From: Candidatus Nomurabacteria bacterium
GTDB taxonomy: Bacteria; Patescibacteriota; Minisyncoccia; Phycocordibacterales; UBA9973
Assembly (NCBI GenBank): GCA_016699365.1
Contig: CP064973.1
Coordinates: 301,684 to 365,683 of the forward strand
Length of the DNA: 64,000 nt
Direction: 5' to 3'
The notes under the pieces are model-generated. The model ran no database searches. It was not told the origin of the DNA and saw nothing but the letters and a program-made list of their open reading frames with translations. Position numbers and translations under genes: made by a program. Each line of letters opens with the position of its first letter. Position 1 is the first letter of the stretch. This document shows, piece by piece, positions 853 through 45,676 of this stretch.

Positions 853-864
853 AGATATTTCATA

Positions 865-2082: not shown

Positions 2083-2090
2083 TTATAATT

Positions 2091-3881: not shown

Positions 3882-3885
3882 ATAT

Positions 3886-4488: not shown

Positions 4489-4490
4489 AT

Positions 4491-9447: not shown

Positions 9448-9762
9448 CTGACCCCTTGAATTATAGGTGTTTTTCAGGTCAGAATCTTTTATTGTAGGTT
9501 TTATATGCTTTTTTATTTCCCTCCACTAGTCGCATGTAGGTGACCAAAAAGTAGTAACTACAAGCTTTTTTGACTGTTTTGGGGTTACGATCGTTCGGAA
9601 AGTCTATCAAAATATAGCTTTATGGGGATATCTGTATTAGGGATACTGCAAAATAAGGTATACTTATCTATATGAACCCTATATATTGAGGGTATCCGAT
9701 ACCGGCAGGCTAGTCAACGAACTATATCCACACCCTGTGGATTACCTGTGTGGCCAATAAAT

Positions 9763-9790
9763 TTGACAAAATTTTAAAATTTAGTATAAT
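9763..9790 (+). promoter_or_regulatory. Sigma70-like promoter TTGACA-N16-TATAAT. The ATG is only about 11 nt downstream, so the transcript would be near-leaderless.
   Basis: Consensus -35 and -10 hexamers immediately upstream of the 9802 start codon. Confidence 0.5.
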
Positions 9791-9801
9791 TATATTACAA
9801 T

Positions 9802-21620: not shown

Positions 21621-21752
21621 AGTTTAAAAAAGAAAAATCTTCCAATAATATGGGGGATTTTTCTTTGGTAATTCACTTTTTTATTGTATTTACTATATAT
21701 TTGCATGGTACAATATACGTACAATTCTATTGTGCAAAAAATATCAAAAAGA

Positions 21753-24700
21753 ATGAAGAATATTTGCGCATCGACACTACTCTTTACTATAGTAATGAGC
21801 TCTTTTTCGTTTTTGTTTTTACCTAGAGTTGCTAAAGCAAATCTAAATGATAATTTCGAAGTTCCTACAATTGAAATTTCGTCAATTGGAGAGACCACAG
21901 CTACAATAAAATATACTCTAAAAGTCGGTGGTAACAATGGTAATATTGGACACGATATCTATAAAAACCAGAAGACAGTAGCAACACCTGGAGCAATCGC
22001 GGATGGAACTGAAGAGTTGGGTGACGCTAGTGATGGGGGAATTGAAGATAGAGTGGGAAATGTATTCGTTAAAGGTGCGGATGGAAACTCTAAATATGAA
22101 ATAATTTCAGGTAATTCAAATGACAATACTGGACCTTTTACTGATCCGGAAAATGGTGGTGCACTCGGATCGTTTGATGAGCTTGAGTGTAACGGATATG
22201 GTTGCGGAGTTTATCTAGATATCGCAGCTATTACGGCTAGTAATTTTGATAGTTTAGACAATAAAGAGGCTCCTAGAATGAGTCAGGAAGAAGTTTTGGC
22301 GGGAACTGAAGCTTCTCTTAGAGCGGGACGTCTAATACCAGGAGAAACTTTTGATCCAGAAATTGGTTTTTCATTTGTTATTATTCCAGACGTTTTTAAA
22401 TCTGAACAAACAGTTATTGTAACAATAACTGGTCTTACTGCTGATACACAATATTATGCATCTGGACGCTTGATGGAAGGAGGTGGAGGAGATGATTTGA
22501 GTGCATCAGATGATGATGAAGACAAGATAGTAGAGTTTAAGACTAAGCCTGTTGGTTCTGGTGAGGTGACTGGTGCCGCTGGTCAAACTACAGCATCAGC
22601 TACCGATGTGGGTGGTTCAGATAATGGTCCTGCTTGTTTCAAAATGGCCGCGGGTGTAGTGCCTTACTTGAGTATCCCTGGATGTTTTGCACAATTGCTC
22701 TACTATGTTTTCTACAAACCAACAGCATTTTTGGCTGGTCTTGCTGCAATGTTTTTGGATTGGTTTATGCATTTTTCTATACAGAGTGCTACCTATAGTG
22801 AATCTGAATTTATATCACAAGGCTGGTCACTTGTTCGTGATATATCAAACATAGTATTTATTTTTATACTTTTATATATAGCAATAGGAACTATACTCCG
22901 ACTACCTTCTGTTGATGCGAAAAAGATGATTGGTACGCTTGTTGTAGTGGCGCTTTTGATAAATTTCAGTTTATTTTTTACAAAGATAGTGGTTGATGCT
23001 TCCAATATTTTAGCGAACCTAATGTATAGCACTATATCAGTCGGAGGTGGAACAGGTGTGGGAGATGAGAAGACAATATCTGGCGCTTTGGTAAGTCAAT
23101 TCAACCCACAAACTATTTTCTCAAAAAGTGGAATAGATTCAGAAGGTGACATAGGTATGTATATCATTGTGACATTGATAGCTGTCGCTATGAACGTTCT
23201 TTTGATAATAATGTTCTTGAAGATAGGTATTTTATTTGTTGGTAGAGTCATATCTCTTATGGTTGCAATGATTTTCTCGCCACTCGCTTTTATATCCATG
23301 ATAGTTCCGGGTATGAAGTCTTGGAAAAATGTTGGTTGGACCAATTGGTCTAGTGAGCTGATAAAAACGGCATTTCTTGCTCCAGTATTTCTATTCTTCT
23401 TGTACTTGATAGTTTTATTCTTAGATTTAAAAACTCTTGCTATATCTGACACAGCTTCTGCTGGAGCAAATCTTCTATACGTCCTGCTTCCGTTTGCGAT
23501 TGTCTACACTTTACTCATGAAAGCACAGAAACTTGCTATAGATTTGTCTGGAGAGATTGGTCAGCAATCCATGGCTGTTATGAGTAAGGTGGGAGGTCTT
23601 GCTGTTGGAGCAGCTACAGGAGGAGCGGCTCTGGCGCTTCGTGGTACGGTTGGGGCCGCTGCCGCTCGTACTGCAGCAAACCCAGAGCTTCAAGCAGCCG
23701 CAGCTGCTGGAGACAAAGGGGCACAACGTAAACTTGCGCTTGCAAACTATGGTGCAGCAAGTAGTTTTGATTTCCGAAAGACAAAGGCTGGTACTGCGTT
23801 TGGTAAACAGACTGGATGGGATATGGACACAAAGGGTAGTGCTAAATTTGCACAAAATCTTGGAAACATGGTTGGTGGTGCAGGTAAATTTGATCTTTCT
23901 ACAGAAGGTGGAGCTAAGTCTGCAAATGAACGCAAGACAAAAGAGAAGTCAGACAAGGTAGAGACATATCTACTCAAGGGTTATGAAGCTAGTCAGCAAG
24001 ATAAAAAAGCAGGAGCTTGGAAAGCTGATCTTGAAAAAGCGCTTGAGCAAGAAAGAAAGAATAATCCAAATCTTGATGAGGTGCAGTTTAGAAAAGACTT
24101 TGAGAAGGGTAATACAACTACTACTTATGTGGATCCTACAACAGGTCAGACTGAAACAATTCGTGGTAGAGCAAAAGAAAAAACAGCAAAAGAAGTCAAT
24201 TCTGAAAGATTACACGATCAAGCAAATGAAGTTGAATTTGGAAATGGCTATACAGAGAAAAGAAATGTTGCTAAAGAGCAGGCTACACAAGCTGGTCAAA
24301 GATTTGATGAAGCTAAATGGAGAAAGGATAACAATATTGAGACTAGATCTGATATGTCTAAATCTGAAAAACAATTTACTGTGGATACTCGCAAAAAAGC
24401 AGGAGAAGAATCAAAACCTATTAGTGGAAAAGAGAGACAGAAGGCAGAAGGTCAGATTACTAGAGCCGCATATGAGCTTAAGAAAATTGATCAGCACTTG
24501 CAAGATATTGCAGATACTTGGAATGCAGACCCTGCAAATGCAGGAAATCCAATTCAGGCAAAAGATGTTTCATTTGATCATGTTGAATTCGCTATGAATG
24601 AAGGTCAGTCAAGTCTATCTATATACGAAGCTCAATTGAAAAAAGCCGAAAAAGATGTTGCTGATGGAACAATTACAGCGCAGCAGTACGCTCAAGTTAA

Positions 24701-24812
24701 ATCTCAGTATGATAAGACAAAAGGAGAAATTGCTTCTTATAAAACATTGTTTAATGACAAAGCTCAGCAGCAGAATGCTAAATCCGAGGCTGAAGAAAAA
24801 TTATCTAGTTAA
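21753..24812 (+). CDS. Large polytopic membrane protein with VirB6/TrbL-like topology (signal peptide, ~280-aa exodomain, at least 6 TM helices, long charged coiled-coil C-terminal tail)
   Basis: Start moved to the ATG at 21753 (signal peptide MKNICASTLLFTIVMSSFSFLFLPRVAKA); the track's 21684 is a TTG that overlaps the TGgTACAAT extended -10. TM cluster at residues ~320-620. Two genes upstream of VirB4. Confidence 0.4.
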   Translation: MKNICASTLLFTIVMSSFSFLFLPRVAKANLNDNFEVPTIEISSIGETTATIKYTLKVGGNNGNIGHDIYKNQKTVATPGAIADGTEELGDASDGGIEDRVGNVFVKGADGNSKYEIISGNSNDNTGPFTDPENGGALGSFDELECNGYGCGVYLDIAAITASNFDSLDNKEAPRMSQEEVLAGTEASLRAGRLIPGETFDPEIGFSFVIIPDVFKSEQTVIVTITGLTADTQYYASGRLMEGGGGDDLSASDDDEDKIVEFKTKPVGSGEVTGAAGQTTASATDVGGSDNGPACFKMAAGVVPYLSIPGCFAQLLYYVFYKPTAFLAGLAAMFLDWFMHFSIQSATYSESEFISQGWSLVRDISNIVFIFILLYIAIGTILRLPSVDAKKMIGTLVVVALLINFSLFFTKIVVDASNILANLMYSTISVGGGTGVGDEKTISGALVSQFNPQTIFSKSGIDSEGDIGMYIIVTLIAVAMNVLLIIMFLKIGILFVGRVISLMVAMIFSPLAFISMIVPGMKSWKNVGWTNWSSELIKTAFLAPVFLFFLYLIVLFLDLKTLAISDTASAGANLLYVLLPFAIVYTLLMKAQKLAIDLSGEIGQQSMAVMSKVGGLAVGAATGGAALALRGTVGAAAARTAANPELQAAAAAGDKGAQRKLALANYGAASSFDFRKTKAGTAFGKQTGWDMDTKGSAKFAQNLGNMVGGAGKFDLSTEGGAKSANERKTKEKSDKVETYLLKGYEASQQDKKAGAWKADLEKALEQERKNNPNLDEVQFRKDFEKGNTTTTYVDPTTGQTETIRGRAKEKTAKEVNSERLHDQANEVEFGNGYTEKRNVAKEQATQAGQRFDEAKWRKDNNIETRSDMSKSEKQFTVDTRKKAGEESKPISGKERQKAEGQITRAAYELKKIDQHLQDIADTWNADPANAGNPIQAKDVSFDHVEFAMNEGQSSLSIYEAQLKKAEKDVADGTITAQQYAQVKSQYDKTKGEIASYKTLFNDKAQQQNAKSEAEEKLSS

Positions 24813-24817
24813 AAAAT

Positions 24818-25714
24818 ATGAAATTTACAGTTGAACAAATAAATAAAGCCTTTGACTCTATCCCAGTAGCTACACGCAAGGCTATGAGTGTTACACCTGT
24901 CGATAAAGTTATGCAAGAGTTGGCTGCAACTCACCAAGTTTCGCTTGATAAAATATCTCAAATTTCTGGTCAAATAACTTTCGTCTTGATTGGTCTTGAA
25001 AAAGCAGGGGATTTCTATGATTCAATTAAGTTTCAAACTGGTCTATCAGATGATATTTTGATAAAACTTGTAGATGAAATAAACAAAAAAATATTTGTTC
25101 CATTTAGACAAGCAATGATTGCATTCTCTTATGAACCAGAAGAAGAGGTAGTAGAAAGTGAACCCGAGGCACCAAGCAATCCTTCGATCAAGTTGAATTT
25201 TCCAGGAACTCCAAAAGCACAAGAGCAAAATGATAGAGCAATTCTTCGTAGTACCGATATAGAGATAGATGAAGATCCAGGAGAGCAGGTTAGAGAGGCT
25301 CTAGAAGATGTAAGCGCAAGAAGTCTAGACAGAGACAAGCTTTTAAGAACACTAGAGAATCCTCCTAAAAGTGAAGGTTTAATAAAAATTCCAGAGGTTG
25401 TAAGACCGGCTGTTTCAGAGATTGGTACAAGTTTTAATAGAGAGAGTATAAAAGTTCCGACGAATATTGTTCCACCGCCTGTAAATTTTTCAGATAAAGT
25501 GGATACAGTACCTCGCCAAGAGAATGATATATCTCCAATACAAAAACTTGCTCAATCAGCAGGAGTTATTGGCACTCCGGAGGTTTCTGGGACTGGTATT
25601 GTAGGTAGCAAACTACAAGCTACTTTTAAAATTCCAAAAGAAGTTAGTAATTACACAGTCCCAGCCATAGGAGAAAAGAAAATTCAGAGTGATCCGTACA
25701 GAGAGCCGGTTTAA
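24818..25714 (+). CDS. Hypothetical acidic protein (298 aa)
   Basis: ORF inside the VirB4 cluster; no TM segment and no recognisable motif. Confidence 0.5.
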   Translation: MKFTVEQINKAFDSIPVATRKAMSVTPVDKVMQELAATHQVSLDKISQISGQITFVLIGLEKAGDFYDSIKFQTGLSDDILIKLVDEINKKIFVPFRQAMIAFSYEPEEEVVESEPEAPSNPSIKLNFPGTPKAQEQNDRAILRSTDIEIDEDPGEQVREALEDVSARSLDRDKLLRTLENPPKSEGLIKIPEVVRPAVSEIGTSFNRESIKVPTNIVPPPVNFSDKVDTVPRQENDISPIQKLAQSAGVIGTPEVSGTGIVGSKLQATFKIPKEVSNYTVPAIGEKKIQSDPYREPV

Positions 25715-25867
25715 AAAATTAGTAAAAATCCCCAAAGGGGATTTTTACTTTATAACCACATGCGTAGTATAGGTTGTGTATATAATAAAAAATCCCATTG
25801 ATTGTGATGGCATAGTATCTCTCTGTATAGTATCTAAAATCTTATAGAATTCTGATATAATACATAC

Positions 25868-26272
25868 ATGCGATTTAGCGTCCCTCAATTTATTGATATC
25901 GAAGATAAAATATTTGGACCATTTACCTTCAAGCAGTTTGTGTATTTAGCTGGAGGTGCTGGTATTTGTTTCATTGTATACAAGTTGCTACCTTTTTTCT
26001 TTGCGGTTATATTTATAGTTCCAATAGCAGGTCTCGCACTGGCTTTGACTTTTTACAAAGTTAACAACAAGCCTTTTATTGCAATACTCGAGTCTTATAT
26101 TAGATTTCTTATGCAGGGTAAGTTGTATATTTGGAAAAAAGATCCGAAGAAAAAAGAAATAAATAAGACAGAAGATGTACTTCCTGCTCCGATTGTTCCT
26201 AGATTATCAGAAAGTAGACTTAAGGATATATCCTGGAGTCTAGATGTTCTCGATGTAAACTCTAAAAAGTAA
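25868..26272 (+). CDS. Small two-TM membrane protein, VirB3/PrgI-like by size, topology and position
   Basis: 134 aa with two adjacent hydrophobic helices near the N-terminus; immediately upstream of the VirB4 ORFs, as is typical for VirB3. Confidence 0.4.
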   Translation: MRFSVPQFIDIEDKIFGPFTFKQFVYLAGGAGICFIVYKLLPFFFAVIFIVPIAGLALALTFYKVNNKPFIAILESYIRFLMQGKLYIWKKDPKKKEINKTEDVLPAPIVPRLSESRLKDISWSLDVLDVNSKK

Positions 26273-26294
26273 ACTATTTGGTATACTAAACTCT

Positions 26295-26939
26295 ATGGCA
26301 ATCAACGCACGCTCAACACAATCATTCGTACCGATCAAAGAAGTTCGGGATGGCGTTGTTGTACTTAAAGATGGTGGTTTGCGTGCTGTGATTATGGCAT
26401 CTTCTGTAAACCTATCGCTTAAGTCTAGTGATGAACAACAAGCTATAATTATGCAATTCCAAACCTTCTTGAATTCTTTGGAATTTTCGACTCAAATAAT
26501 TGTTCAATCTAGGAGATTGGACATAAAACCATACTTACTTACACTTGAGAATCGAATGAAGGATCAAGTCGAACCCCTACTTAAAGTTCAAACAAAAGAG
26601 TATATAGAATTTATAAGATCATTTACAGAACAGGTGAACATAATGACAAAGAACTTTTTTATAGTAGTACCTTATTCTGCAGCTCCATTGTCAAAGCAGG
26701 GTAGTATAACAAAGGCATTTTCCGATCTTACTGGTGCTGGAGATAAAGTTAGTCAAAAAAATGACGCACTATCTTTATTTGAAGAAAAAAGAACCCAGTT
26801 AGAGCAGCGTGTTGCAGTTATTCAACAGGGTCTTAATCGTTGTGGTGTGCGTAGTACAAAACTTGGGACAGAAGAAGTGATAGAACTTTTTTATAAAGTA
26901 TTTAATCCTGGTGAGACTGAACAAAATATAAAAATATAA
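26295..26939 (+). CDS. VirB4 N-terminal-domain-like protein (CagE/TrbE/VirB-type N-terminus). Either a separate ORF or the frameshifted 5' part of virB4.
   Basis: PIKEVRDGVVVLKDGGLRAVIMASSVNLSLKSSDEQQAIIMQFQTFLNSL matches the characteristic VirB4 N-terminus. Its stop overlaps the next ATG in another frame at an A-rich run. Confidence 0.45.
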   Translation: MAINARSTQSFVPIKEVRDGVVVLKDGGLRAVIMASSVNLSLKSSDEQQAIIMQFQTFLNSLEFSTQIIVQSRRLDIKPYLLTLENRMKDQVEPLLKVQTKEYIEFIRSFTEQVNIMTKNFFIVVPYSAAPLSKQGSITKAFSDLTGAGDKVSQKNDALSLFEEKRTQLEQRVAVIQQGLNRCGVRSTKLGTEEVIELFYKVFNPGETEQNIKI

Positions 26940-26941
26940 TT

Positions 26942-28768
26942 ATGGGAATTTTAGATAAAATTTTAGGTAAATCAAGTAAAAAAGCAGACGAACACCAAGT
27001 TTTGCCTGTTTTACCAGAGGAAATATATCAAGCGGCAACTCTAGAACTTCAGGATGTTATCGCGCCATCAGCACTACAAGTTGAGCCAAAGGCTTTGCAT
27101 TTGGGTGATAAAATAGCTCGTACTTTTTTTGTAATTTCTTATCCAAGATATCTTACTGATAACTGGTTTGCGCCAATCATCAACTTAGATAAAATATTTG
27201 ATGTTTCTTTTTTCATACACCCTATTGATACAGCTACAATATTGCGTCAATTTCAGAAAAAAGTTGCTGAGGTGCAAAGTCAGATAAATATGAGAGAGAG
27301 CCGTGGTCTTGTTCGTGACCCAATACTTGATACTGCGTACCGCGACCTAGAAAGTTTGCGTGATAGTTTGCAACAAGCCCAAGAAAAGATGTTTGATGTT
27401 GGTTTGTATATAACAATGTATGCCGACAATGAAGATGAGCTTTTCAAGTTGGAAAATGAAATAAAGTCTATCTTAGATGCCAAGCTAGTGTATCTAAAGC
27501 CAGCACTGTTTCAGCAGGAAGAAGGATTTAAGAGTGTAATTCCAATAGGTACAGATCTTCTTGGTGTACACCAGAAGCTTAATTCTGAACCTCTTTCTAG
27601 TATTTTCCCATTCGTTTCTTTTGACCTTACTTCTGATAAGGGTATTTTATATGGCGTAAATCGACACAATTCAAGCTTGGTTATATTCGACCGTTTCTCA
27701 CTTGAAAACTATAACTCTATTACTTTTGCAAAATCTGGTTCTGGTAAATCTTATGCCACAAAACTAGAGCTTATTCGTACTCTCATGTTCGACACAGAAG
27801 TGATTGTGATAGACCCAGAGCGTGAATATGAATACTTGGCTGAAGCGGTAGGTGGAAGATATTTCAATATTTCACTATCTAGTGATCACCACATCAATCC
27901 TTTTGATCTTCCTATACCTCGTGAAGATGAAACAGCTAGTGATGTGCTTCGCTCCAATACAATCAACTTGGTTGGGTTGTTTAGAATAATGCTCGGCGGC
28001 CTTACTCCAGAAGAAGATGCAATTATTGATCGTGCGATAACTGAGACATATGCTATCAAGGATATCACTGCAAATTCTGATTTCTCGAATATTGAACCAC
28101 CGCTTTTGTCTGACTTTGAAATGGTTTTATCAGGAATGGAGAATACCGAATCCGTTGTTCAGAAGTTGCAAAAGTACACTCGCGGTAGTTGGGCAGGTTT
28201 CTTAAATCAGCCTTCAAACGTTGATATCAATAAAAAATTCGTAGTGTTTTCAGTGCGTGATATGGAAGACGAACTCAAGCCTGTTGCGATGTATATTGTT
28301 ACTCACTACATTTGGAATGCAGTACGTAAAAATCTACGCAAAAGATTGCTTGTAGTGGACGAGGCATGGTGGATGATGAAAAGTGAAGACACAGCATCTT
28401 TCTTGTACTCAATTGCCAAGCGCGGAAGAAAATACTATCTAGGACTAATGACCATAACACAAGACGTGGGGGACTTCTTGAAAAGTCCGTACGGATTGCC
28501 GATCGTAACAAACTCTTCTATTCAATTGCTGTTGAAACAATCTCCTAGTTCTATAGATGTTCTTCAAAAGACTTTCAATTTAACAGATGAAGAAAAGTAT
28601 CTTCTTTTAGAATCAGGAGTCGGAGAGGGAATATTTTTTGCTGGATTAAAGCATGTCGCCATAAAGATTATTGCTTCATATACTGAAGATCAGATCATAA
28701 CATCTGATCCATCACAAGTATTGGCCATCCAGAAAGCTAAAAAGGATTTAGAAGAAGCGTCTAGTTAG
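26942..28768 (+). CDS. virB4: Type IV secretion / conjugal transfer ATPase, VirB4 family (Gram-positive PrgJ/TcpF-like)
   Basis: Walker A motif FAKSGSGKSYAT; Walker B motif LLVVDEAWWMM; motifs IAPSALQVEPKALHLGDKIARTFFVISYPRYL and C-terminal MTITQDVGDF. Confidence 0.8.
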   Translation: MGILDKILGKSSKKADEHQVLPVLPEEIYQAATLELQDVIAPSALQVEPKALHLGDKIARTFFVISYPRYLTDNWFAPIINLDKIFDVSFFIHPIDTATILRQFQKKVAEVQSQINMRESRGLVRDPILDTAYRDLESLRDSLQQAQEKMFDVGLYITMYADNEDELFKLENEIKSILDAKLVYLKPALFQQEEGFKSVIPIGTDLLGVHQKLNSEPLSSIFPFVSFDLTSDKGILYGVNRHNSSLVIFDRFSLENYNSITFAKSGSGKSYATKLELIRTLMFDTEVIVIDPEREYEYLAEAVGGRYFNISLSSDHHINPFDLPIPREDETASDVLRSNTINLVGLFRIMLGGLTPEEDAIIDRAITETYAIKDITANSDFSNIEPPLLSDFEMVLSGMENTESVVQKLQKYTRGSWAGFLNQPSNVDINKKFVVFSVRDMEDELKPVAMYIVTHYIWNAVRKNLRKRLLVVDEAWWMMKSEDTASFLYSIAKRGRKYYLGLMTITQDVGDFLKSPYGLPIVTNSSIQLLLKQSPSSIDVLQKTFNLTDEEKYLLLESGVGEGIFFAGLKHVAIKIIASYTEDQIITSDPSQVLAIQKAKKDLEEASS

Positions 28769-28863
28769 TCCTTGTATACAGTAGATGCTTATTTTATAAT
28801 AGTTTTAATGAATAAAAAGCGATATCGTCTACTTTACTCTATTTTTCAATCACAATTTTCTCT

Positions 28864-29805
28864 GTGATTATGTTCTCTGCACCTTTTAGCACAAGCGCAC
28901 TTGTTGGCAGTGATGTTATTGCAGAAATTACTCCAGAAATACCTGGCCCAAATGAACAAGTTACAATCAGGCTTACTAGTTATGCTATAGATTTGAATAG
29001 TTCACTAATTACTTGGAAGATTGGTGGTAAAACAGTTTTATCAAAAAACGGAGCCGTTTCCTATACTTTAAGTTCTGGTGCTAGTGGTTCTAGAACTACA
29101 GTTGAGGCAACTATTGTTTTTAGAGGTTCAACTTTAGTAAAGACAATATTGATTGAGCCTTCAACAATAGATCTTATATGGGAAGCTGTAGATTCATATA
29201 CACCTCCTTTTTATAAAGGTAAGGCACTACCTTCATCGGAAGCTGTTATAAAAATAGTAGGTATACCAGACATGAAATCTGGTGGAATAAAGCTTTCAAA
29301 AAATGACCTGACTTTCTCATGGGAGAGAAATTTTAGTGCGCTGCCAGTTTTTTCTGGATACGCAAAAGATTCTTTTATTTTTAAAACTAGTTATTTGAAT
29401 ACAACAGAAACAATATCTTTAAAAGCTAGCTCTATCAACGGTGGTCTTTCAGCTCAAAAAATCTCTACAATAAGAACCTCTTCACCTTTTATTGTTTTTT
29501 ATGAGTACAGTCCTCTTGCTGGAGTAAATTATAAAAAAAATCTTGGTGAATATTTTTCTCTAACTAAAGATGAGGCTACTATTGTAGCGGAGCCTTATTT
29601 CTTTTCTCCGAAAGATGCACTATCTAATGATCTAGATTATGAGTGGAAAATCAATGGCACAAGGATTGCAAACCAGTATCCTAAAAATACTCTTGTAGTT
29701 AGGAAACCTGCTGGTGCTAGTGGTAATGCATTTATTGATCTTTCAATTGAAAGTAAACCTAGGCTTTTTCAATCAGCAGATAAAACTTTAAATATTAATC
29801 TATAA
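28864..29805 (+). CDS. Hypothetical beta-rich secreted protein (313 aa)
   Basis: ORF in the cluster; Ser/Thr-rich, Ig-like character; no motif. Confidence 0.5.
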   Translation: MIMFSAPFSTSALVGSDVIAEITPEIPGPNEQVTIRLTSYAIDLNSSLITWKIGGKTVLSKNGAVSYTLSSGASGSRTTVEATIVFRGSTLVKTILIEPSTIDLIWEAVDSYTPPFYKGKALPSSEAVIKIVGIPDMKSGGIKLSKNDLTFSWERNFSALPVFSGYAKDSFIFKTSYLNTTETISLKASSINGGLSAQKISTIRTSSPFIVFYEYSPLAGVNYKKNLGEYFSLTKDEATIVAEPYFFSPKDALSNDLDYEWKINGTRIANQYPKNTLVVRKPAGASGNAFIDLSIESKPRLFQSADKTLNINL

Positions 29806-29809
29806 AACC

Positions 29810-31171
29810 ATGATCATTTTTAAAAAATATAAGATTGCGCTAGCTGTTATTATTTTCTTGGGCCTGATCGTATCCAAGAGTGTTTATGCTGCTGTAGATG
29901 TTTTTGTTGATGATGGAGGAACAGATCTTAATCCAACATCTTTTTCTTTTGAGGGAGATGTTGTTGGAGCGGGGACCGGATTTTCTATGATCCCTGTATG
30001 GGGTGTTACAGCTACATCTTTAACAAATAGTGCCCCAGTAATTACACCGCTTGCGGACGGTTCATTTAGTGGTTCTATAACAGGCCTTACTCCAAATACA
30101 ACTTACTACTATCAGTTTATAGATGCAGCTGACGGCACAATAAAGCTTACGATAGTAGATTCGTTTACTACTCCGCTTGTTTTTGCTGGTACGGATGGTG
30201 GTAAAGATGCCGTAGATTTGACCGGCTCTGGTTCAGGAACTTCAAATCCGAATTGTACAAATGGTGATGATTCATACTGTTTACTAGCTCCTATACCTGG
30301 TTTATCTGAAGTTAATCCGGCAAATACTGATCTTGGTGATTATCTGAATATAATTATAAAATTTGCGATTGGGTTTGCCGGTGCGCTTGCAGTTATCATG
30401 ATGGTGCTTGGAGGTATTCAATATATGTCTACAGATGCGCTGTCTGGAAAGAGCGAGGGGAGAGAGCGTATTACTTATGCTCTGGGAGGATTATTGTTAG
30501 CTCTAGCTAGTTACTTAATACTAAATACAATAAATCCAAATTTGGTTAATTTACATCTTGGAATCCAGGGTACAAACATACAAGTTGTTGAATCGCCGGA
30601 AGATATATTTGCTTTACAGGTTCAGTCTTTTGAATCAACAGGGCAAAATACTTTGGGTAATAAGTATTTGATGTTTGGTAATTATGCTGCCCCTCTACCT
30701 AGTGCTGGAGTGTCCGATTTTGTAAATACATACTTGAAAAATGGATATTCTCTTTCAGAAATAAAAATAAATACATCTACTAAAAAAGCAGAATTTGTAG
30801 CAAAAAATGGAGGAGCAACGAAGAGCGTTATTATAGATATAAACATAGGAGCAAACGGTGCTTCTGAGGTGGGGATGGGTGTGAGTGGAGATTTAAAAAC
30901 ACCAAAAGGTATATGGACTATACCTGCAAATGGTAGGAAGATTTCTGAGAACCAGGATTCTGCTATTTTAAATGGAGCTGGTGTAAACATGGGCGCAGCT
31001 TTTGTGAATACAGGTGCTACTTTGCCTAGCGGCACAGATCGAGGTATTGGTTTTCATGGACAGGCTAACAATAATCTAGGAAATACAGCTGGATGTATAA
31101 AGATGCGAAATGACGACATCTTGATCCTTTATCCTTATATGGTTTCTGGTGTTAAAGTAAATATATTCTAG
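29810..31171 (+). CDS. Secreted/membrane protein combining a VirB2/TrbC-like two-helix hydrophobic hairpin with a C-terminal L,D-transpeptidase (YkuD) catalytic domain
   Basis: Signal peptide. Hairpin KFAIGFAGALAVIMMVLGGIQYMS..YALGGLLLALASYLIL. C-terminus GIGFHGQANNNLGNTAGCIKMRNDDILILYPYMVSGVKVNI matches the YkuD motif HG..(S/T).GC(I/V)(R/K)M.N.D. Confidence 0.55.
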   Translation: MIIFKKYKIALAVIIFLGLIVSKSVYAAVDVFVDDGGTDLNPTSFSFEGDVVGAGTGFSMIPVWGVTATSLTNSAPVITPLADGSFSGSITGLTPNTTYYYQFIDAADGTIKLTIVDSFTTPLVFAGTDGGKDAVDLTGSGSGTSNPNCTNGDDSYCLLAPIPGLSEVNPANTDLGDYLNIIIKFAIGFAGALAVIMMVLGGIQYMSTDALSGKSEGRERITYALGGLLLALASYLILNTINPNLVNLHLGIQGTNIQVVESPEDIFALQVQSFESTGQNTLGNKYLMFGNYAAPLPSAGVSDFVNTYLKNGYSLSEIKINTSTKKAEFVAKNGGATKSVIIDINIGANGASEVGMGVSGDLKTPKGIWTIPANGRKISENQDSAILNGAGVNMGAAFVNTGATLPSGTDRGIGFHGQANNNLGNTAGCIKMRNDDILILYPYMVSGVKVNIF

Positions 31172-31172
31172 T

Positions 31173-32540
31173 ATGAATAAAAAAAGATTAATCATAATAG
31201 TTTCATTTATTGTAATCATTTTGATTGTCTTTTTATCTATTTTTTTGAAAAATAAAAATACAAATCCTGAAACAAGTGGAGATGGTTTTAGTTTGTCAGA
31301 CCTTTTTCCTTTCGGGTCTGTGACTGACAGAGGTGGTAGTTCGGACAATGATACAAACGACGATATTATTCCTGATGTTGTTACTGTGGATGAGAATGGG
31401 AATGTGATTATTCCACGCCTTAGACAGGTTTCTACTTTCCCTGTTTCTGGAGCAACTGTATTTAATACAAAAAGAACAAGAGTTGTTCCAATCCCTCCTC
31501 TACCAATCGAAGGTGACTCAGGAGGTGATCCTGTTGTTATAGCGCAGACTCCAACAGAAGAAATTGTAGTAGAAGATGCGACAGCTATCAGGTATATGGA
31601 ACAATCAACTGCTCATATATATGAGACTTATACTGATACATTGACTGAAACAAGAATTTCAAATACAACCATACCTAGGATATATGATACCTATTGGAAT
31701 TTAGACGGAGGGTCTGTAGTTTTTAGATATTTAGAAGATGGAACAAATAAGATACAAACATATCTTGCAACACTTTCTTCTCCGAGTGTTTTTGCGGAAG
31801 GGGGTAGTAGTCAAAATCCATCAGTTTTAAAAGATTTAAAGGGAAATTTTTTGGTGGAAGGAATTACAGATATATCGGTGTCACCAGACAAGACTAGGTT
31901 TTTTACTCTCGAGCCTGTTGTCGGGGGAGTTGTTGGTATAACAGAGGATTTTCTAGGTGGTAAAAAATCTCAAGTATTTGAATCATCTCTTTCTGAATGG
32001 TTGTCATTTTGGCCAAATGCGACAACTCTAACACTTACTACAAAACCTTCAGGCACACTTCCTGGGTACATGTATTCCGTAGATGTAAATAAAAAAAGTT
32101 TTGACAAAGTACTAGGAGGGATTGTTGGTTTAACTACAAAAATGAGCCCAGATGGTAAAAAAGTTTTATACAGCGCATCTGTTGCAAATGAGGTAAGACT
32201 TTATTCTTATGATTTAAATACAAAATCTACTACAGATCTGGGTATATCTACTCTTCCAGAGAAGTGTGTATGGTCAAAAGACAGCATAACTGTATATTGT
32301 GCTGTACCAGAAAGTTTCTTGTTGGGGGTATATCCTGATGTTTGGTATCAAGGACGTGTATCTTTTGAAGATACATTGTGGAGTATGAACCTCAGTACAA
32401 GTGTTTATTATGTATTAGTTGACCCTATAGAAACAATTAATATTCCTATTGATATGACAAACCTATTCTTGGACGGAAGTGAAAAATACATTTTTTTCAC
32501 CAATAAAAAAGACGGGATTCTCTGGAGTTATAGCATATAA
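31173..32540 (+). CDS. N-terminally membrane-anchored protein with PD40/TolB-like beta-propeller repeats
   Basis: N-terminal TM segment; repeats of the SPDKTRFF / SPDGKKVLYSA type. Confidence 0.45.
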   Translation: MNKKRLIIIVSFIVIILIVFLSIFLKNKNTNPETSGDGFSLSDLFPFGSVTDRGGSSDNDTNDDIIPDVVTVDENGNVIIPRLRQVSTFPVSGATVFNTKRTRVVPIPPLPIEGDSGGDPVVIAQTPTEEIVVEDATAIRYMEQSTAHIYETYTDTLTETRISNTTIPRIYDTYWNLDGGSVVFRYLEDGTNKIQTYLATLSSPSVFAEGGSSQNPSVLKDLKGNFLVEGITDISVSPDKTRFFTLEPVVGGVVGITEDFLGGKKSQVFESSLSEWLSFWPNATTLTLTTKPSGTLPGYMYSVDVNKKSFDKVLGGIVGLTTKMSPDGKKVLYSASVANEVRLYSYDLNTKSTTDLGISTLPEKCVWSKDSITVYCAVPESFLLGVYPDVWYQGRVSFEDTLWSMNLSTSVYYVLVDPIETINIPIDMTNLFLDGSEKYIFFTNKKDGILWSYSI

Positions 32541-32553
32541 ATCCATACAGCTA

Positions 32554-32582
32554 TTGCAAATACTATAAATATGATGTATAGT
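32554..32582 (+). promoter_or_regulatory. Sigma70-like promoter TTGCAA-N17-TATAGT
   Basis: Good hexamers ~30 nt upstream of the 32614 ATG. Confidence 0.45.
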
Positions 32583-32613
32583 ATTTTCGAACTTCTTAAA
32601 TTAAATATTAGCT

Positions 32614-32808
32614 ATGGATAAAACAACTACAGACGGAGATGTGATTCTACACATTTTAAACGAAAAAGGTAAAGAGGGTTCCCTGACAATAGGAGACATA
32701 ATATCCTTTTACAAAGATGACTCTAGAGTTTTAAACTCTCGCACTATTGCAGAAGAAATGCGAGATCTTGAAAAAGAGGGTTTTATAGAAAAAATTCTCG
32801 ACAAGTGA
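32614..32808 (+). CDS. Small hypothetical protein (64 aa), possibly winged-helix-like
   Basis: Short ORF with its own promoter and a downstream terminator. Confidence 0.35.
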   Translation: MDKTTTDGDVILHILNEKGKEGSLTIGDIISFYKDDSRVLNSRTIAEEMRDLEKEGFIEKILDK

Positions 32809-32885
32809 TGTGGTCGATAACCCAGAAAGGTCTGATGAAGATATCAGATATTCCTGAGCTATCCTCTTCCGGATCTCATACGAGT

Positions 32886-32922
32886 TAAAAAATATCCCCC
32901 GCATTTGCGGGGGATTTAATTT
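32886..32922. terminator. Bidirectional Rho-independent terminator (ATCCCCCGC-ATTT-GCGGGGGAT)
   Basis: 9-bp GC-rich stem between two convergent genes; A and T tracts on either side. Confidence 0.7.
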
Positions 32923-33329
32923 TATAAGACAGATTTTATTTTTTCTGCAGTTTCTTCAGCTTCACCTAGCATATAAGGCTTGCCTGGCCAATGCTTTAGT
33001 CCATCTCCTGCAAAACGGGGAATTATATGCATATGATAGTGCCATATAACTTGTCCGGCATCAGTGCCATTGTTTTGTCCTATATTTATACCTGTTGCGC
33101 CTATACTAAATTTTATAGCGTTGGCTATTTTCTTTGCTGTCGGCATCAATTTTTCAAGCAACTCATCGGGCATCTCATGTATATTTTCATGGTGCTCTTT
33201 TGGTATTAGGAGTGTGTGCCCAGGATTTATTGGATTAACATCCAAAAAAGCCAAACCGACTTCGTCCTCATAGACCTTGGTGCAAGGTATTTCTCCTTTT
33301 ATGATTTTACAAAAAATACAACTTTCCAT
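32922..33329 (-). CDS. HIT-family (histidine triad) nucleotide hydrolase
   Basis: Histidine triad HYHMHIIP and the NPGHTLLIPKEH motif. Confidence 0.8.
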   Translation of the reverse strand: MESCIFCKIIKGEIPCTKVYEDEVGLAFLDVNPINPGHTLLIPKEHHENIHEMPDELLEKLMPTAKKIANAIKFSIGATGINIGQNNGTDAGQVIWHYHMHIIPRFAGDGLKHWPGKPYMLGEAEETAEKIKSVL

Positions 33330-33420
33330 ACAAAAATAATACCATAATAGGAATATTTTAGTTATAAGCTATTTTTTAGGAGACGGGATAATAAATACCT
33401 CTCGTGCTACAATCATTTCT

Positions 33421-35071
33421 ATGCAATCGGGTGAATTACTAAAAAAACTATTAGAAAATAGAGGTGTAGACGAAGGTCAAATAGACTCTTTTTTGCTCCC
33501 AGACTACGAAAAGACTTTGCATGACCCTTTTTTATTCAAGGATATGGAGCGTGCGTGCGTGAGAATTTTTGAAGCTATAGATCAGAATCAAAAAATAGTT
33601 GTTTATGCAGATTATGATGCAGATGGAATTCCTGGGGCAGTTATATTCAATGATTTTTTCAAAAGATTGGGTATGAGAATTTTGATATATACATACCCGA
33701 TCGTCACGATGAGGGTTATGGTTTACATAAAAGCGCAGTAGATGAATTTATAAAACAAGGTGTATCGCTCATAATTACTGTTGATTTGGGTATTACCGCA
33801 GTGGAAGAAGTAAGAGATGCTCTTATTGGAGGAGTTGATGTGATTATTACCGATCACCATTTACCACACGCAGGAGTTCCAAGGGCTTTTGCAATCATCA
33901 ATCCTAAATACGATACAAATTATCCATTTGATGGACTTTGCGGAGCAGGAGTTGCTTTCAAGGTTGTGTGTGCGCTTATAAAAAAATATGGAGAATATTG
34001 GAATATAAAAGAAGGTTGGGAAAAGTGGACACTTGATATGGCAGGACTCGCCACCCTTTCTGATATGGTTCCATTGGTAGGTGAGAATAGAACCATTGCT
34101 TATTGGGGTCTTCATGTAATGCGTAAATCTCCTAGACCGGGGTTGGTGCATTTATTTAAAAAAGCGGGGATTAATATGCGCTATATCAATGAAGAAGATA
34201 TAACTTTTTCACTTACTCCTAGACTAAATGCTGCTTCACGTATGGCATCTCCTAAAAGTGCTTTTATGATGCTCGCAGAAAAAGATATTTTAAAAGCGCA
34301 GGGTTTTGCAGAATATCTTACTGGCATAAATGACGAAAGAAAGACAATAGTTGCTAGCATAATGAAAGATGTTCACAAGAACTTAGAAAAAAGAGAACTT
34401 TGTGAAGTTATAGTTATCGGTAATCCGTCTTGGCGAGTCGGGGTGCTGGGTCTTGTTGCTTCAAAAATATGTGAGACTTATAAACGTCCTGCTTTTGTTT
34501 GGGGTAGAGAGGGTGGAAAAGAGGAGGATGATGCTCCTATAAAAGGGTCTTGTAGATCAGATGGAAGTGTAAATATTGTTGAGCTCATGCAACTAGAAAG
34601 TGAATCTTTTGCTAGTTTTGGAGGACATGAAATGGCGGGAGGATTTAGTGTAAAAAGTGAGCATATACATTTTTTAGAAGATAAATTAGCATCTAAATTT
34701 TCATCGATTAAAAGAGATGTAAAAATAGATGACATAGCATATGATCTCGAGCTTAGTATAAGTGATATAAACAAAGGTAACTACAAATCCATAGATAGCC
34801 TATCCCCATATGGCCTTGGCAATCCAAAACCCATCTTTTTATTTAAGAGTGTAAAGATAGAATCTATGAAGCAATTTGGTAAAGAAAAAAATCATCTAGA
34901 GATGATATTTTCAGGAGGTGGTAAAAAAGTTAAAGCCATATCTTTTTTGACTCACCGCATGAGTATGGAGTTTTAGGGGAAGGTTTAAATGTAGATTTGT
35001 ACGCAACATTTGAGTTGTCTAGATTTGCAGGTAAAGAAGAGCTCCGCTTGAGAATAGTTGATATAAAATAA
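33421..35071 (+). pseudogene. recJ: recJ-like DHH-family single-stranded-DNA exonuclease interrupted by two -1 frameshifts, at a G3 run (~33669) and a T6 run (~34943)
   Basis: DHH motifs VVYADYDADG and ITDHH. The conserved IPDRHDEGYGL and the C-terminal ...HEYGVLGEGLNVDLYATFELSRFAGKEELRLRIVDIK continue in the adjacent frames. Confidence 0.6.
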
Positions 35072-35101
35072 AAATCGCACATGTTTGTGCGATTTTTATT
35101 T
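35068..35101. terminator. Bidirectional Rho-independent terminator (AATCGCACA-loop-TGTGCGATT)
   Basis: 9-bp stem flanked by A and T runs between convergent genes. Confidence 0.65.
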
Positions 35102-35108
35102 TATATAT

Positions 35109-35366
35109 CTATAGGTCTGAATCTACTCCCTCTACATCTACACTGTCTAAGTCTGTGCCTATAGAGTTAATTTCTGCTGACAATTCTGCATCTCCTGATA
35201 CTTGCTCGTTTACATTAGTGTCTAGAGTCTCTACTTCGTAATTGAATTCTTTTCCTTTGTTTGTATTCATTACAAAATATATACCTACAAGTATCACTAT
35301 TGCTACAAGAACCCAAATTATTGAATTTCCTTTTTGTGATTTCATATTTTTAAAATAGAAATGCAC
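35109..35366 (-). CDS. Small single-TM protein with acidic C-terminal tail (85 aa)
   Basis: Hydrophobic helix IIWVLVAIVILVGIYFV. Confidence 0.45.
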   Translation of the reverse strand: MHFYFKNMKSQKGNSIIWVLVAIVILVGIYFVMNTNKGKEFNYEVETLDTNVNEQVSGDAELSAEINSIGTDLDSVDVEGVDSDL

Positions 35367-35436
35367 ACAGATATTTTTTCGGTGTGCATTTTCTATAACT
35401 ATTGTTAATTTTTAAACATTTCCAATAATAATTATA

Positions 35437-35898
35437 TTAGAGAGCTGGTTCGTCTGCTGGAGCGTCTTCTGCTTCTCCCTTCTTGTTCTCAATAGCTTCT
35501 CTTAGTTCATCGCGTAGTTCTTTTACAGAATCTCTGTATTCCATCAACGCATCTTTTGCTTCTTTAGTTTGAGTGCGGATTTCAGCAGTTGGAGTTGCTA
35601 CACCTCCTGCTATTGTTTCATCTATAAGAGTCTTTAGAGCCTCAACTTCTGCTTTTGCAGCATCTTGCTTTGCTATAACTGCATCATATGCATCTTCTGC
35701 TTTTGATGTGTCATAACCTTTTGCCTCTGCTTTTACCATAACTGCTTCAAATCTATCTAGGATGCCGTCCATTCGGACAACTAAACTATCTAGACGTCCC
35801 TTGAAAGATGTTAGTCCTTCAGGTTTTGCAGCTAGTGCACTAGAACTTGTAAATAATACTGCTAGAGCCAAAGCTCCGATTGCTAGTTTGTTTTTCAT
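35437..35898 (-). CDS. Secreted Ala/Glu/Lys-rich alpha-helical protein (153 aa)
   Basis: Signal peptide MKNKLAIGALALAVLFTSSSALA; locally higher GC than the neighbouring sequence. Confidence 0.5.
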   Translation of the reverse strand: MKNKLAIGALALAVLFTSSSALAAKPEGLTSFKGRLDSLVVRMDGILDRFEAVMVKAEAKGYDTSKAEDAYDAVIAKQDAAKAEVEALKTLIDETIAGGVATPTAEIRTQTKEAKDALMEYRDSVKELRDELREAIENKKGEAEDAPADEPAL

Positions 35899-36050
35899 AT
35901 GTTTTTTATGTTAGTTAAGATTAATGCTTTTAAACACAAGGTTTTTTAACCTTGTACACTATATATTACGAATGATTTCTCATTTTGTGACAAAGACCAG
36001 GGGTGTTTTTATACTATAAATCATAGCATAAATTTACCTTGTCAATTATA

Positions 36051-36860
36051 ATGGTTCCTATGCAATACGGAATAGAGATATATACAGATGGGTCTTCTAG
36101 GGGTAATCCTGGTCCTGGGGGCTATGGTGCTATTTTGATCATAAAAACCGATGTGACTGATTCTTTAGATTGGAAAAAGCAGGTTAAAATAATCGAAATT
36201 GGGGGAAAGGATACTCATACTACAAACAACGCCATGGAGCTCACTGGTGCGCTGAAGGCTCTTGAGGAGATAAAAAATCGATCAATCAAAGGCAACATAG
36301 CTGTTCATACTGATTCCAGTTATTTACTTCAAGGTATTGAATCTTGGATATATGCGTGGGAGAAAAATGGATGGAAAACAAAAGAGGGAGCAGATGTAGC
36401 CAATCAGGAAATTTGGAAAAAATTATTGGCTATTACTTATAAAGCTAAACTGTCTCGTGAAAGAGAAATAGTTTGGCAAAAAGTAAAAGGCCATTCGGGT
36501 TTGGTTGCAAATGAGCGCGTAGATGAGATAGCTACAAAAAGTGCATTGGGGGAGCATGTGCTTCTTTTTACAGGAACCTTATTAGACTATGAAAATCTTT
36601 TTGGTTTTGATATGGATATTCATCCAACAGAATTAAAAACAGCTGACAAATTAAATCCAAAAATAAAAGACAAAAAATCTAAGTCTAAAAGTTCTAAACC
36701 AGCGTATTCTTATGTGAGTTTAGTGGACGGTAAAATACACAAAGATAAAACTTGGGACGAATGCAAAAAGAGGGTAACAGGTAAAAGTGGTGTTAAATAT
36801 AAGAAGGTTTTTTCAAAATCTGAAGAAGATGAACTCATAGAGAAATTCAAAAGTATTTAG
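36051..36860 (+). CDS. rnhA: Ribonuclease HI with a ~120-aa Lys-rich C-terminal extension
   Basis: Motifs IEIYTDGSSRGNPGPGGYG, HTDSSYL and VKGHSGLVANERVDEIA. The track's 36039 start is a TTG; the ATG is at 36051. Confidence 0.75.
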   Translation: MVPMQYGIEIYTDGSSRGNPGPGGYGAILIIKTDVTDSLDWKKQVKIIEIGGKDTHTTNNAMELTGALKALEEIKNRSIKGNIAVHTDSSYLLQGIESWIYAWEKNGWKTKEGADVANQEIWKKLLAITYKAKLSREREIVWQKVKGHSGLVANERVDEIATKSALGEHVLLFTGTLLDYENLFGFDMDIHPTELKTADKLNPKIKDKKSKSKSSKPAYSYVSLVDGKIHKDKTWDECKKRVTGKSGVKYKKVFSKSEEDELIEKFKSI

Positions 36861-36872
36861 ACTTTTTAGAAT

Positions 36873-38363: not shown

Positions 38364-38386
38364 ATTTTTATAATATACTTATACAC

Positions 38387-43886: not shown

Positions 43887-43892
43887 GATAAA

Positions 43893-45614: not shown

Positions 45615-45676
45615 GTATTGGTTTTAAACATATTCAAGAGATATAATCTATTTTTTGAGATATAATAGATTTGTAG

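Follow-up and report, generated by a model that had tools for sequence, protein, structure and literature searches.

A putative pilin-like subunit with an exchangeable peptidoglycan-enzyme cassette in a Patescibacterial type IV secretion operon

Why would a gene in a type IV secretion system (T4SS) operon join a pilin-like membrane hairpin to an enzyme of the cell wall, and why would that enzyme differ between closely related genomes? The question is raised by a gene for a 453-residue protein in Candidatus Nomurabacteria bacterium, an ultra-small member of the Patescibacteriota. The gene lies in a 64,000-nucleotide stretch of contig CP064973.1 (NCBI GenBank assembly GCA_016699365.1, positions 301,684 to 365,683 of the forward strand), which is referred to here as the window; coordinates are positions within it and are collected in Table 1. 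Related loci are designated by L numbers and homologous proteins by P numbers. The initial annotation of the locus, made from the sequence without database searches, had proposed a fusion of a VirB2/TrbC-like pilin hairpin and an L,D-transpeptidase domain within a T4SS cluster. Taken together, the evidence below suggests that the enzyme with which this T4SS would cut the wall is borne by the pilin itself, as an exchangeable cassette.

Architecture of the fusion protein

The gene is closely adjoined by an open reading frame (ORF) on either side (Table 1). A chance ORF or a gene-calling artefact was rejected, since the complete frame is intact in orthologues with 97.4% (L008) and, over the full length, 74% (L007) identical DNA. 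The product contains two histidines and three cysteines in total. Besides the predicted signal peptide, whose cleavage site was inferred from an AXA-like motif, hydropathy identifies hydrophobic helices at residues ~176–203 and ~221–241. A first AlphaFold2 (AF2) model, built on an alignment of 95 family sequences, contains a confident beta-sandwich at residues 30–120 (predicted local distance difference test, pLDDT, 85–94) and a helical hairpin formed by residues 175–207 and 211–241 (pLDDT ~90), with low-confidence linkers rich in Gly, Ser and Thr adjoining the motifs that flank the hairpin. In Foldseek comparisons with the Protein Data Bank (PDB), the N-terminal domain matches the sensor domain of RsgI4 and many fibronectin type III (FN3) domains (E down to 3e-5), while Pfam returns weak matches to Pur_ac_phosph_N and PhoD_N. 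A sequence search of the PDB with the whole protein yielded a spurious match to glutamine synthetase alone (E=0.57). Because a cleaved signal peptide is followed by two further membrane helices, an even number, the short charged loop STDALSGKSEGRER is predicted to lie inside, and both the FN3-like domain and the enzyme outside the membrane, at the peptidoglycan.

Conservation within the family peaks in the hairpin, and the flanking domains are unrelated between members. G227 is invariant, the positions L159, I187, G202, Y205, K214, A224, L228, L238, T240, I241, N242 and P243 are conserved in at least 90% of members, and the NTINPNL motif at the C-terminal junction is nearly invariant. A signal peptide followed by two hydrophobic helices with a short charged loop is the layout of the PF18895 (T4SS_pilin) family, which comprises the VirB2-like pilins of Patescibacteria (Wang et al., 2023, PMC10633639; Quinonero-Coronel et al., 2025, PMC12102498). 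This family is matched at E≤1e-3 by 74 of the 95 homologues, and by 25 of 26 diverse modules that are 33–60% identical to the module of the query (best E=1.3e-13). The query module is accordingly best placed in PF18895, and not in the TrbC/VirB2 family PF04956, by a probable homology that is transitive through its relatives. PF04956 gives no match to the query and weak matches to eight of the 26 related modules (best E=3.9e-5), and a profile of the pilin module searched against the PDB recovered no VirB2, TraA or TrbC, the only matches being chance ones to membrane proteins. The proposed pilin-like hairpin is thus upheld as an element distinct from the signal peptide and belonging with the T4SS_pilin family; its link to canonical TrbC/VirB2 is weak. 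Canonical TrbC and VirB2 are small (mature length ~70–120 aa) and have no extra globular domains, whereas the query has 453 aa with FN3-like and YkuD domains. A simple signal-anchor was also considered for the hairpin and rejected, on the grounds that the protein has a separate cleavable signal peptide and that no other part of the family is as conserved as the hairpin.

The YkuD profile (PF03734) matches residues 318–452 over profile positions 4–146 of 146 (E=4.5e-9; 37.5 bits against a gathering score of 23.4). The string GIGFHGQANNNLGNTAGCIKM... (residues 412–452), in which the initial annotation had recognised a YkuD active-site region with its catalytic Cys, falls within this match, and its reading was borne out: His416 and Cys429 are present and are invariant across 26 aligned cassettes. 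Lys431 of the query stands where at least 90% of its relatives, and Bacillus subtilis YkuD, have Arg. A profile made from eight cassettes finds B. subtilis YkuD in the PDB (2mtz, E=4e-6) with the catalytic His and Cys in register, the GFHG and TAGCIKM motifs of the query being aligned to IHG...GCIRM. The C-terminal part was poorly modelled at first, and residues 282–453 were re-predicted with the 26-sequence cassette alignment, giving a pLDDT of 97.0 and a predicted TM-score (pTM) of 0.91; structure prediction, which had been suggested as a check, recovers both the hairpin and the YkuD domain with high confidence.

Although the fold is clear, the activity that the initial annotation attached to it may be misnamed. 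Foldseek relates the C-terminal model to 12 YkuD-fold chains of the PDB with probability 1.0 at E≤1e-3, headed by Bd1075 (7o21, E=6e-6) and followed, in order, by Pgp2 (6xj6, E=4.8e-5), DpaA (8ikr, E=4.8e-5), B. subtilis YkuD (3zqd) and Csd6 (4xzz, E=1.2e-4); the cross-linking transpeptidases of Acinetobacter baumannii and Mycobacterium tuberculosis rank after the hydrolases. Csd6 of Helicobacter pylori, Pgp2 of Campylobacter jejuni and Bd1075 of Bdellovibrio bacteriovorus are LD-carboxypeptidases (LD-CPases), and DpaA/LdtF of Escherichia coli is an amidase (PMC10653827, PMC8938487). An aromatic pocket for D-Ala, specific to LD-CPases, is formed by a Tyr and a Trp in Csd6, and LD-transpeptidases can be told from LD-CPases by how long their L2 lid is (PMC10653827). 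These hydrolases share the arrangement of catalytic His and Cys with the cassette at 17–23% sequence identity; they differ in being soluble periplasmic proteins, some with NTF2-like domains, that act in cell shape or Lpp release and have no link to a secretion system. Because the domain is interchangeable with pure hydrolases (see below) and structurally closest to hydrolytic YkuD enzymes, hydrolytic trimming as an LD-carboxypeptidase or endopeptidase is more likely than the synthesis of 3-3 cross-links, to judge from the alignments and models.

Cassette exchange and the modular family

The nearest relatives of the fusion protein, P0002, P0003 and P0005, are 64–78% identical to it over the first 74% of its length and then continue as VanY. 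At the DNA level the change is abrupt. In blastn alignments the window is 94.3% identical to L001 over 21528–30564 and 96.7% identical over 31194–39489, and the intervening segment has no detectable DNA similarity to L001, which has VanY there; L002, with 94–97% identical DNA on either side and VanY in the slot, gives the same picture (both loci are from a Ca. Pacebacteria metagenome-assembled genome, GCA_018061905.1). The left junction follows directly after the codons for ...NPNLVNLHLGI, and the right junction lies at the start codon of the next gene. A third cassette, of 196 aa and with no family assigned, occupies the slot in L006, whose flanks are 82% and 76% identical to the window on the two sides. 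L007 (GCA_031972635.1), which is contiguously 74% identical through the whole gene, has kept YkuD, and L008, at 97.4%, has the same allele as the window. Cassette type is therefore independent of relatedness, which indicates that the switch between YkuD and VanY came about by recombinational exchange of the cassette, as far as can be judged from sequence comparison. The composition of the cassette is not anomalous (GC content 0.376, against 0.391 upstream and 0.352 downstream).

An immunity gene was found neither in the cassette nor after it: the segment 30565–31193 holds no further gene, only antisense ORFs overlapping it, and the next gene has 96.7% DNA identity whether a YkuD or a VanY cassette precedes it. 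Being unchanged across cassettes, that gene is not a cassette-specific immunity gene.

The same modularity extends through the family. At least 100 residues follow the hairpin in 87 of the 95 homologues, and every C-terminal extension among them that Pfam recognises is a peptidoglycan enzyme: VanY in 11, YkuD in eight, Peptidase_M15_4 in five, SLT and NlpC/P60 in three each, M15_3, Amidase_5 and M15_2 in two each, and M74 and M15 in one each. The two classical chemistries of VirB1 and PrgK, SLT and NlpC/CHAP-like, are both represented. The N-terminal side also varies, with FN3-like repeats in some members and Annexin in five. These five (P0042, P0045, P0052, P0062 and P0070) carry the unexpected Annexin domain (PF00191, best E=4e-9) N-terminal to the pilin module and have no C-terminal extension. 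Nine C-terminal domains of relatives remained unassigned, with no significant Pfam match. Several of the Pfam-less cassettes (among P0013, P0014, P0022, P0092, P0004 and P0019) share, by eye, a pattern H-x(n)-D...H-x-H, for example WLHKTHG..IDL...HWH, which recalls LAS-type zinc peptidases, and may represent undescribed families of peptidoglycan peptidases.

When only the C-terminal 203 aa served as query, a word-indexed search returned one match, which is misleading as to the rarity of the cassette. An exhaustive hidden Markov model (HMM) search with the cassette profile, covering 1.84 billion representatives of 50% identity clusters, gave 578 matches at E≤1e-3, 150 at E≤1e-10 and 105 at E≤1e-30, and the match lies at the extreme C-terminus in nearly all of the matched proteins. 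The pilin module is also present in 126 of the best 150 representatives, which makes at least 126 clusters with this combination; 20 of the other 24 are shorter than 230 aa, and most of these are probably fragments. Judging from these profile matches, this YkuD cassette is essentially a pilin-associated subfamily. The initial annotation had suggested searching for the same architecture beside VirB4 in other genomes, and pilin-YkuD fusions were indeed found in the T4SS operons of L003, L007 and L008, within what is a widespread modular family.

L007 holds a second pilin fusion, P0009 (6001–7038), two genes downstream of its pilin-YkuD orthologue (3249–4604). P0009 has no FN3 domain, a hairpin 76% identical to that of the query and a C-terminal SLT lytic transglycosylase; by its sequence, one operon can thus hold two differently armed pilin genes. 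A relative of the cassette also occurs on its own: P0254 (L010, 8001–8513) is a stand-alone protein of 170 aa with no signal peptide, encoded beside dapB, dapA, a diaminopimelate (DAP) aminotransferase gene, dapF and an alanine racemase gene, and may act in the cytoplasm as an LD-carboxypeptidase that recycles muropeptides. Some 4 kb further along (L010, 12807–14160), bAvd and reverse-transcriptase genes suggest a diversity-generating retroelement.

The T4SS operon and possible roles of the fusion

The T4SS cluster proposed in the initial annotation is confirmed by genes for PrgI/VirB3 and a VirB4-type ATPase upstream of the fusion, in a conserved operon (Table 1). The order PrgI, TraC/TrsD-like protein, VirB4, ~330-aa gene, pilin fusion and ~455-aa gene recurs in L001, L002, L005, L006, L007 and L008; L003 has a variant order, and the sequence of L004 begins just upstream of the ~330-aa gene. 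The gene directly 5′ of virB4 is labelled FATA_TrsD in a supplement to earlier work (PMC12102498). The 1042-aa membrane protein further upstream, a candidate for an extended VirB6/PrgH-like channel subunit, has a counterpart at the same position in L001, L002, L003, L005 and L006. No coupling protein, relaxase or separate SLT, CHAP or NlpC hydrolase occurs among the window genes scanned with Pfam. Apart from PrgI/VirB3, a family HMM run on all stop-to-stop ORFs with a minimum length of 40 aa and a scan for small ORFs with two transmembrane (TM) helices found no further pilin genes in the 64 kb, and the fusion is the sole pilin-like gene there. In L003, which represents another lineage, a plain T4SS_pilin gene of 151 aa (9519–9974) lies immediately 5′ of the pilin-YkuD fusion (10001–11020), which would fit a major subunit accompanied by a decorated minor subunit, and the conserved gene of ~433 aa precedes the pilins there rather than following them.

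Table 1. Features of the T4SS operon and of the fusion gene in the 64,000-nucleotide window.
Feature	Coordinates	Strand	Basis
Membrane protein, 1042 aa, N-terminal hydrophobic segment and five central TM helices	21684..24812	+	hydropathy; no Pfam match
298-aa protein	24818–25714		no family assigned
PrgI (VirB3-like), 134 aa, 2 TM	25868..26272	+	Pfam PF12666, E=1e-9
TraC-like/TrsD-like protein, 214 aa, precedes VirB4	26295..26939	+	orthologues in L001, L003, L005 and L006 carry PF26593 (TraC-like)
VirB4-type ATPase, 608 aa	26942..28768	+	Pfam P-loop_TraG (E=4e-26), AAA_10, DUF87
Conserved operon gene between virB4 and fusion, 313 aa (311–345 aa in relatives)	28864..29805	+	no Pfam match
Pilin-YkuD fusion gene, 453 aa, ATG start	29810..31171	+	ORF list, Pfam, AF2, DNA orthologues
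Predicted signal peptide, residues 1–27 (KKYK, hydrophobic core, VYA/A cleavage site)	29810..29890	+	hydropathy, sequence; AF2 helix 3–21
FN3-like beta-sandwich, residues ~29–121, predicted extracytoplasmic	29894..30172	+	AF2, Foldseek
Pilin module, residues 149–251: C-x7-C / YCLLAPIPG motif, helix 1 (175–207), charged loop STDALSGKSEGRER, helix 2 (211–241), NTINPNL junction motif	30254..30562	+	hydropathy, family alignment, AF2, PF18895 relatives
Exchangeable cassette: linker and YkuD domain, stop codon, first 21 nt of next gene	30565..31193	+	blastn, junction alignments
YkuD (L,D-transpeptidase-fold) domain, residues 318–452	30761..31165	+	Pfam, AF2, Foldseek
His416 codon, predicted catalytic His, GFHG motif	31055..31057	+	alignment
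Cys429 codon, predicted catalytic nucleophile, TAGCIKM motif	31094..31096	+	alignment
Conserved operon gene, 455 aa, N-terminal TM anchor and large external part	31173..32540	+	hydropathy, orthologues

The window is chromosomal, and not part of a plasmid or phage. Its GC content ranges from 0.31 to 0.41 with a steady positive GC skew, and its housekeeping genes include type IV pilus genes, tpiA, pgk, a uvrD-like helicase gene, ksgA, RNase H, comEC, rpsL, rpsG, fusA and tuf. ksgA lies 9 kb upstream of the locus, and dnaA, rnpA and yidC flank the locus in L003–L005. Chromosomal, relaxase-less T4SSs related to the FATA type of mating-pair formation (MPF) system have been reported near ksgA, dnaA and rnpA in Paceibacteria (PMC12102498), and the present system fits a T4SS of this kind in a Paceibacteria-class Patescibacterium.

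Our favoured explanation, which sequence and model evidence make somewhat probable, is that the fusion is a VirB2-like (PF18895) T4SS subunit bearing the wall-processing enzyme of the system as an exchangeable cassette. After Sec export and removal of the signal peptide, the hairpin would span the membrane so that its short charged loop faces the inside and the FN3-like domain and the enzyme lie outside, at the peptidoglycan. There the YkuD-fold enzyme would supply the wall-processing activity of the T4SS in place of a VirB1/PrgK hydrolase, attacking the bond from the L-centre to D-Ala in tetrapeptide stems by way of a Cys429 acyl-enzyme, and the covalent tether to the pilin module would confine the enzyme to the site of assembly or to the filament as it grows. 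The cassette would be swapped by homologous recombination, with the conserved pilin module as the left arm and the conserved downstream gene as the right arm. A VirB1-like role is suggested because the slot is filled in relatives by chemistries of VirB1, PrgK and TraG (SLT, NlpC/CHAP-like), because no separate VirB1 turned up among the operon genes scanned, and because the peptidase and lysozyme genes that come right after virB4 in Saccharibacteria are essential (PMC12102498). Near virB4 of Patescibacteria, homologues of VirB1 are mostly absent, and their place may be taken by other hydrolases (PMC12102498). As virB1 and virB2 are neighbouring genes in classical virB operons, a fusion of the two functions would be a natural Rosetta-stone case. 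VirB1 (SLT, Gram-negative) and PrgK and TraG of pIP501 (SLT/muramidase with CHAP/NlpC, Gram-positive) are likewise active on peptidoglycan, encoded in a T4SS operon and located outside the membrane, as is predicted here. They differ in that the YkuD Cys/His chemistry would act on stem peptides rather than glycan strands, the query having no SLT, CHAP or NlpC domain, and in that the enzyme is fused to a pilin-like subunit instead of being separate and is of a type that is exchangeable between close relatives.

Several observations weigh against this explanation. The pilin label rests on family assignment, topology and context: the hairpin of the query scores below the PF18895 gathering score of 26.6 (16.6 bits with the full protein, 21.3 bits with the isolated module), and an hhalign comparison of the module alignment with six annotated plasmid VirB2/TrbC proteins of the MPF_T type is colinear and non-significant (E=0.18, probability 0.3%). 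A further peptidoglycan hydrolase, an M23 peptidase with two LysM domains that is encoded ~17 kb upstream of virB4 on the minus strand (8380–9447), might assist the T4SS as well, and some M23/LysM proteins were counted as VirB1-like in a published survey. The Foldseek margin of hydrolases over transpeptidases is modest (E=6e-6 versus 5e-4; TM-score ~0.5), and the C-I-K/R motif after the Cys is similar to the one found in B. subtilis YkuD and other transpeptidases. This motif and the YkuD match itself, both common to transpeptidases, speak for a true L,D-transpeptidase that would form 3-3 cross-links, or anchor the T4SS, the base of its pilus or the protein itself to peptidoglycan as ErfK-type enzymes do with Braun's lipoprotein, or would simply be an incidental housekeeping enzyme; stand-alone relatives of the cassette in housekeeping contexts, such as P0254 beside the DAP-pathway and alanine racemase genes, point the same way. 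We nevertheless consider this very improbable, given that near-identical genomes switch to VanY at the same codon and others have SLT, NlpC/P60 or M15 domains, none of which anchors or cross-links; that pilin fusions make up most of the best cassette matches (126 of 150); that the operon position is kept across loci with ~65–75% or no detectable DNA identity; and that the top fold matches are hydrolases.

Fast swapping of chemistries between near-identical genomes is likewise unexpected for a pure housekeeping assembly factor, and would fit a target that varies, such as the wall of a host. The enzyme might then act in trans on the peptidoglycan of host or prey, the fusion polymerising into the T4SS pilus or capping it like an "evolved pilin" effector. 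The FN3-like and enzyme domains would decorate the outside, and the C-terminal slot would be polymorphic because hosts differ, as in evolved VgrG/PAAR, Rhs and CdiA. Both termini face outward in VirB2-type pili, and Tlde1, an antibacterial effector of the type VI secretion system, is YkuD-like, with an L,D-transpeptidase-like fold. A conserved delivery module joined at a near-invariant NTINPNL junction to a sharply bounded, recombining C-terminal cassette, of which at least three types occur at one locus in related genomes, agrees with such a role, as do a repertoire (M15_3/4, Amidase_5, NlpC/P60, SLT) resembling that of lysins and antibacterial effectors and a conservation of the hairpin far beyond the needs of a plain anchor. 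The T4SS and its pilins are, moreover, essential for the epibiotic growth of a Saccharibacterium (PMC10633639, PMC12857230). Polymorphic toxins, evolved VgrG/PAAR proteins, Rhs and CdiA share with the present family a constant carrier, a junction motif and a recombining C-terminal enzyme cassette, several of their cassettes targeting peptidoglycan; here, however, no cognate immunity gene travels with the cassette, YkuD and VanY being followed by the same downstream gene; the carrier is a pilin-like membrane hairpin of a T4SS, and delivery into another cell is hypothetical. No pilus has been observed so far in this lineage, the pilus of Saccharibacteria being predicted only (PMC12857230). Some 150 and 200 extra residues per subunit would make for a crowded filament, and the window has no plain pilin; Paceibacteria hosts may lack murein, and several of the cassette types, the carboxypeptidase-like ones, would be weak as weapons. 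On balance an action in trans is possible and rather unlikely. Its more specific form, a filament on whose surface a recombining cassette that cleaves peptidoglycan is displayed by every VirB2-like subunit, or by a tip or minor subunit, for cutting or harvesting the host wall, is to be taken as a tentative and doubtful proposal; if true, it would correspond, among T4SSs, to the evolved VgrG/PAAR effectors, the pilin serving as the carrier of a polymorphic toxin. A further reading treats the protein as a precursor in which the motifs xYCLLAPLPG on the N-terminal side and NTINPNL on the C-terminal side are processing sites that free a VirB2-sized pilin of ~95 aa, the FN3-like domain and the enzyme, fusion serving co-expression and co-localisation only. 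Canonical TrbC and VirB2 are proteolytically trimmed and cyclised, both motifs rank with the best-conserved positions and coincide exactly with the domain boundaries and the recombination junction, and the low-confidence linkers of the model adjoin them. Set against this, Pfam recognises no TraF-like or other maturation peptidase among the operon genes, and the motifs could just as well serve in packing or in contacts with lipids, which leaves processing of this kind an improbable account.

Neighbouring genes and wider meaning

Elsewhere in the window, a type IV pilus block occupies 43–5969 on the plus strand. It encodes a PilB-like ATPase that the window edge truncates, a T2SSF protein resembling PilC, a CarboxypepD_reg protein of 596 aa and a pilin of 200 aa recognisable by its N-terminal methylation motif. 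Both a type IV pilus and a T4SS-pilin system are thus present in this genome, and comEC lies at 36873–38363. Downstream of the operon, recJ (33421–34976, plus strand) is split into ORFs of 106 and 396 aa by single-base deletions near 33653 and 34942. In L001, 96.7% identical here, it is one gene of 550 aa, and the split copy is either a pseudogene or the product of a homopolymer or assembly error. Between recJ and a minus-strand gene (35437–35898), an inverted repeat whose 21-nt arms match perfectly around a 4-nt loop (35061–35106; ATATAAAATAAAAATCGCACA / TGTGCGATTTTTATTTTATAT), kept in L001, looks like a bidirectional terminator. Three large consecutive genes at 41985–48889 (plus strand) encode proteins of 633 aa with CarboxypepD_reg and of 573 and 1070 aa with Peptidase_S74, the domain that acts as intramolecular chaperone in endosialidase and in phage tail fibres, and look like fibre or adhesin proteins on a chromosome. 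ARAGORN predicted no tRNA genes across the 64 kb, despite the presence of the str operon region (rpsL, rpsG, fusA, tuf).

Several elements of this account are already known, namely VirB2-like pilins in Patescibacterial T4SSs, the need of T4SSs for peptidoglycan hydrolases and the existence of hydrolytic YkuD-fold enzymes. The Patescibacterial pilins described to date have the same hairpin module and lie near virB3/virB4 in chromosomal, relaxase-less, MPF-FATA-like T4SSs (PF18895; PMC10633639, PMC12102498), but they are treated as small stand-alone subunits, often in arrays of 2–11 genes, whereas here one 453-aa gene includes FN3-like and enzyme domains. Neither a pilin-enzyme fusion nor an exchange of cassettes is mentioned in the searchable literature, including PMC10633639 and PMC12102498 with its supplement, a coverage that does not extend to subscription journals. 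Many such proteins are already present in databases, where their only labels are "L,D-transpeptidase family protein" or "D-alanyl-D-alanine carboxypeptidase family protein". To call the architecture undescribed is therefore right for the searchable literature, the domain combination itself being already exposed in databases, and the fusion and its swapping are new in the sense of not being described in that literature, rather than of never having been seen.

The Patescibacterial T4SS is the first system of this type to have proved essential to the organism that carries it, and its VirB2-like pilins are unexpected in a monoderm in which VirB1 is generally lacking (PMC12857230, PMC12102498). The fusion suggests where the missing hydrolase may be located and predicts that pilin and enzyme act at one place; it also raises the possibility that the T4SS targets the wall of a partner cell. 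The exchange provides a clean natural case of domain-cassette replacement between ~95% identical genomes, and the cassette adds to the YkuD family, which includes drug targets and cell-shape enzymes, a branch linked to a secretion system. In Paceibacteria, the pilin-like subunit commonly bears a wall enzyme, swappable across at least six chemistries.

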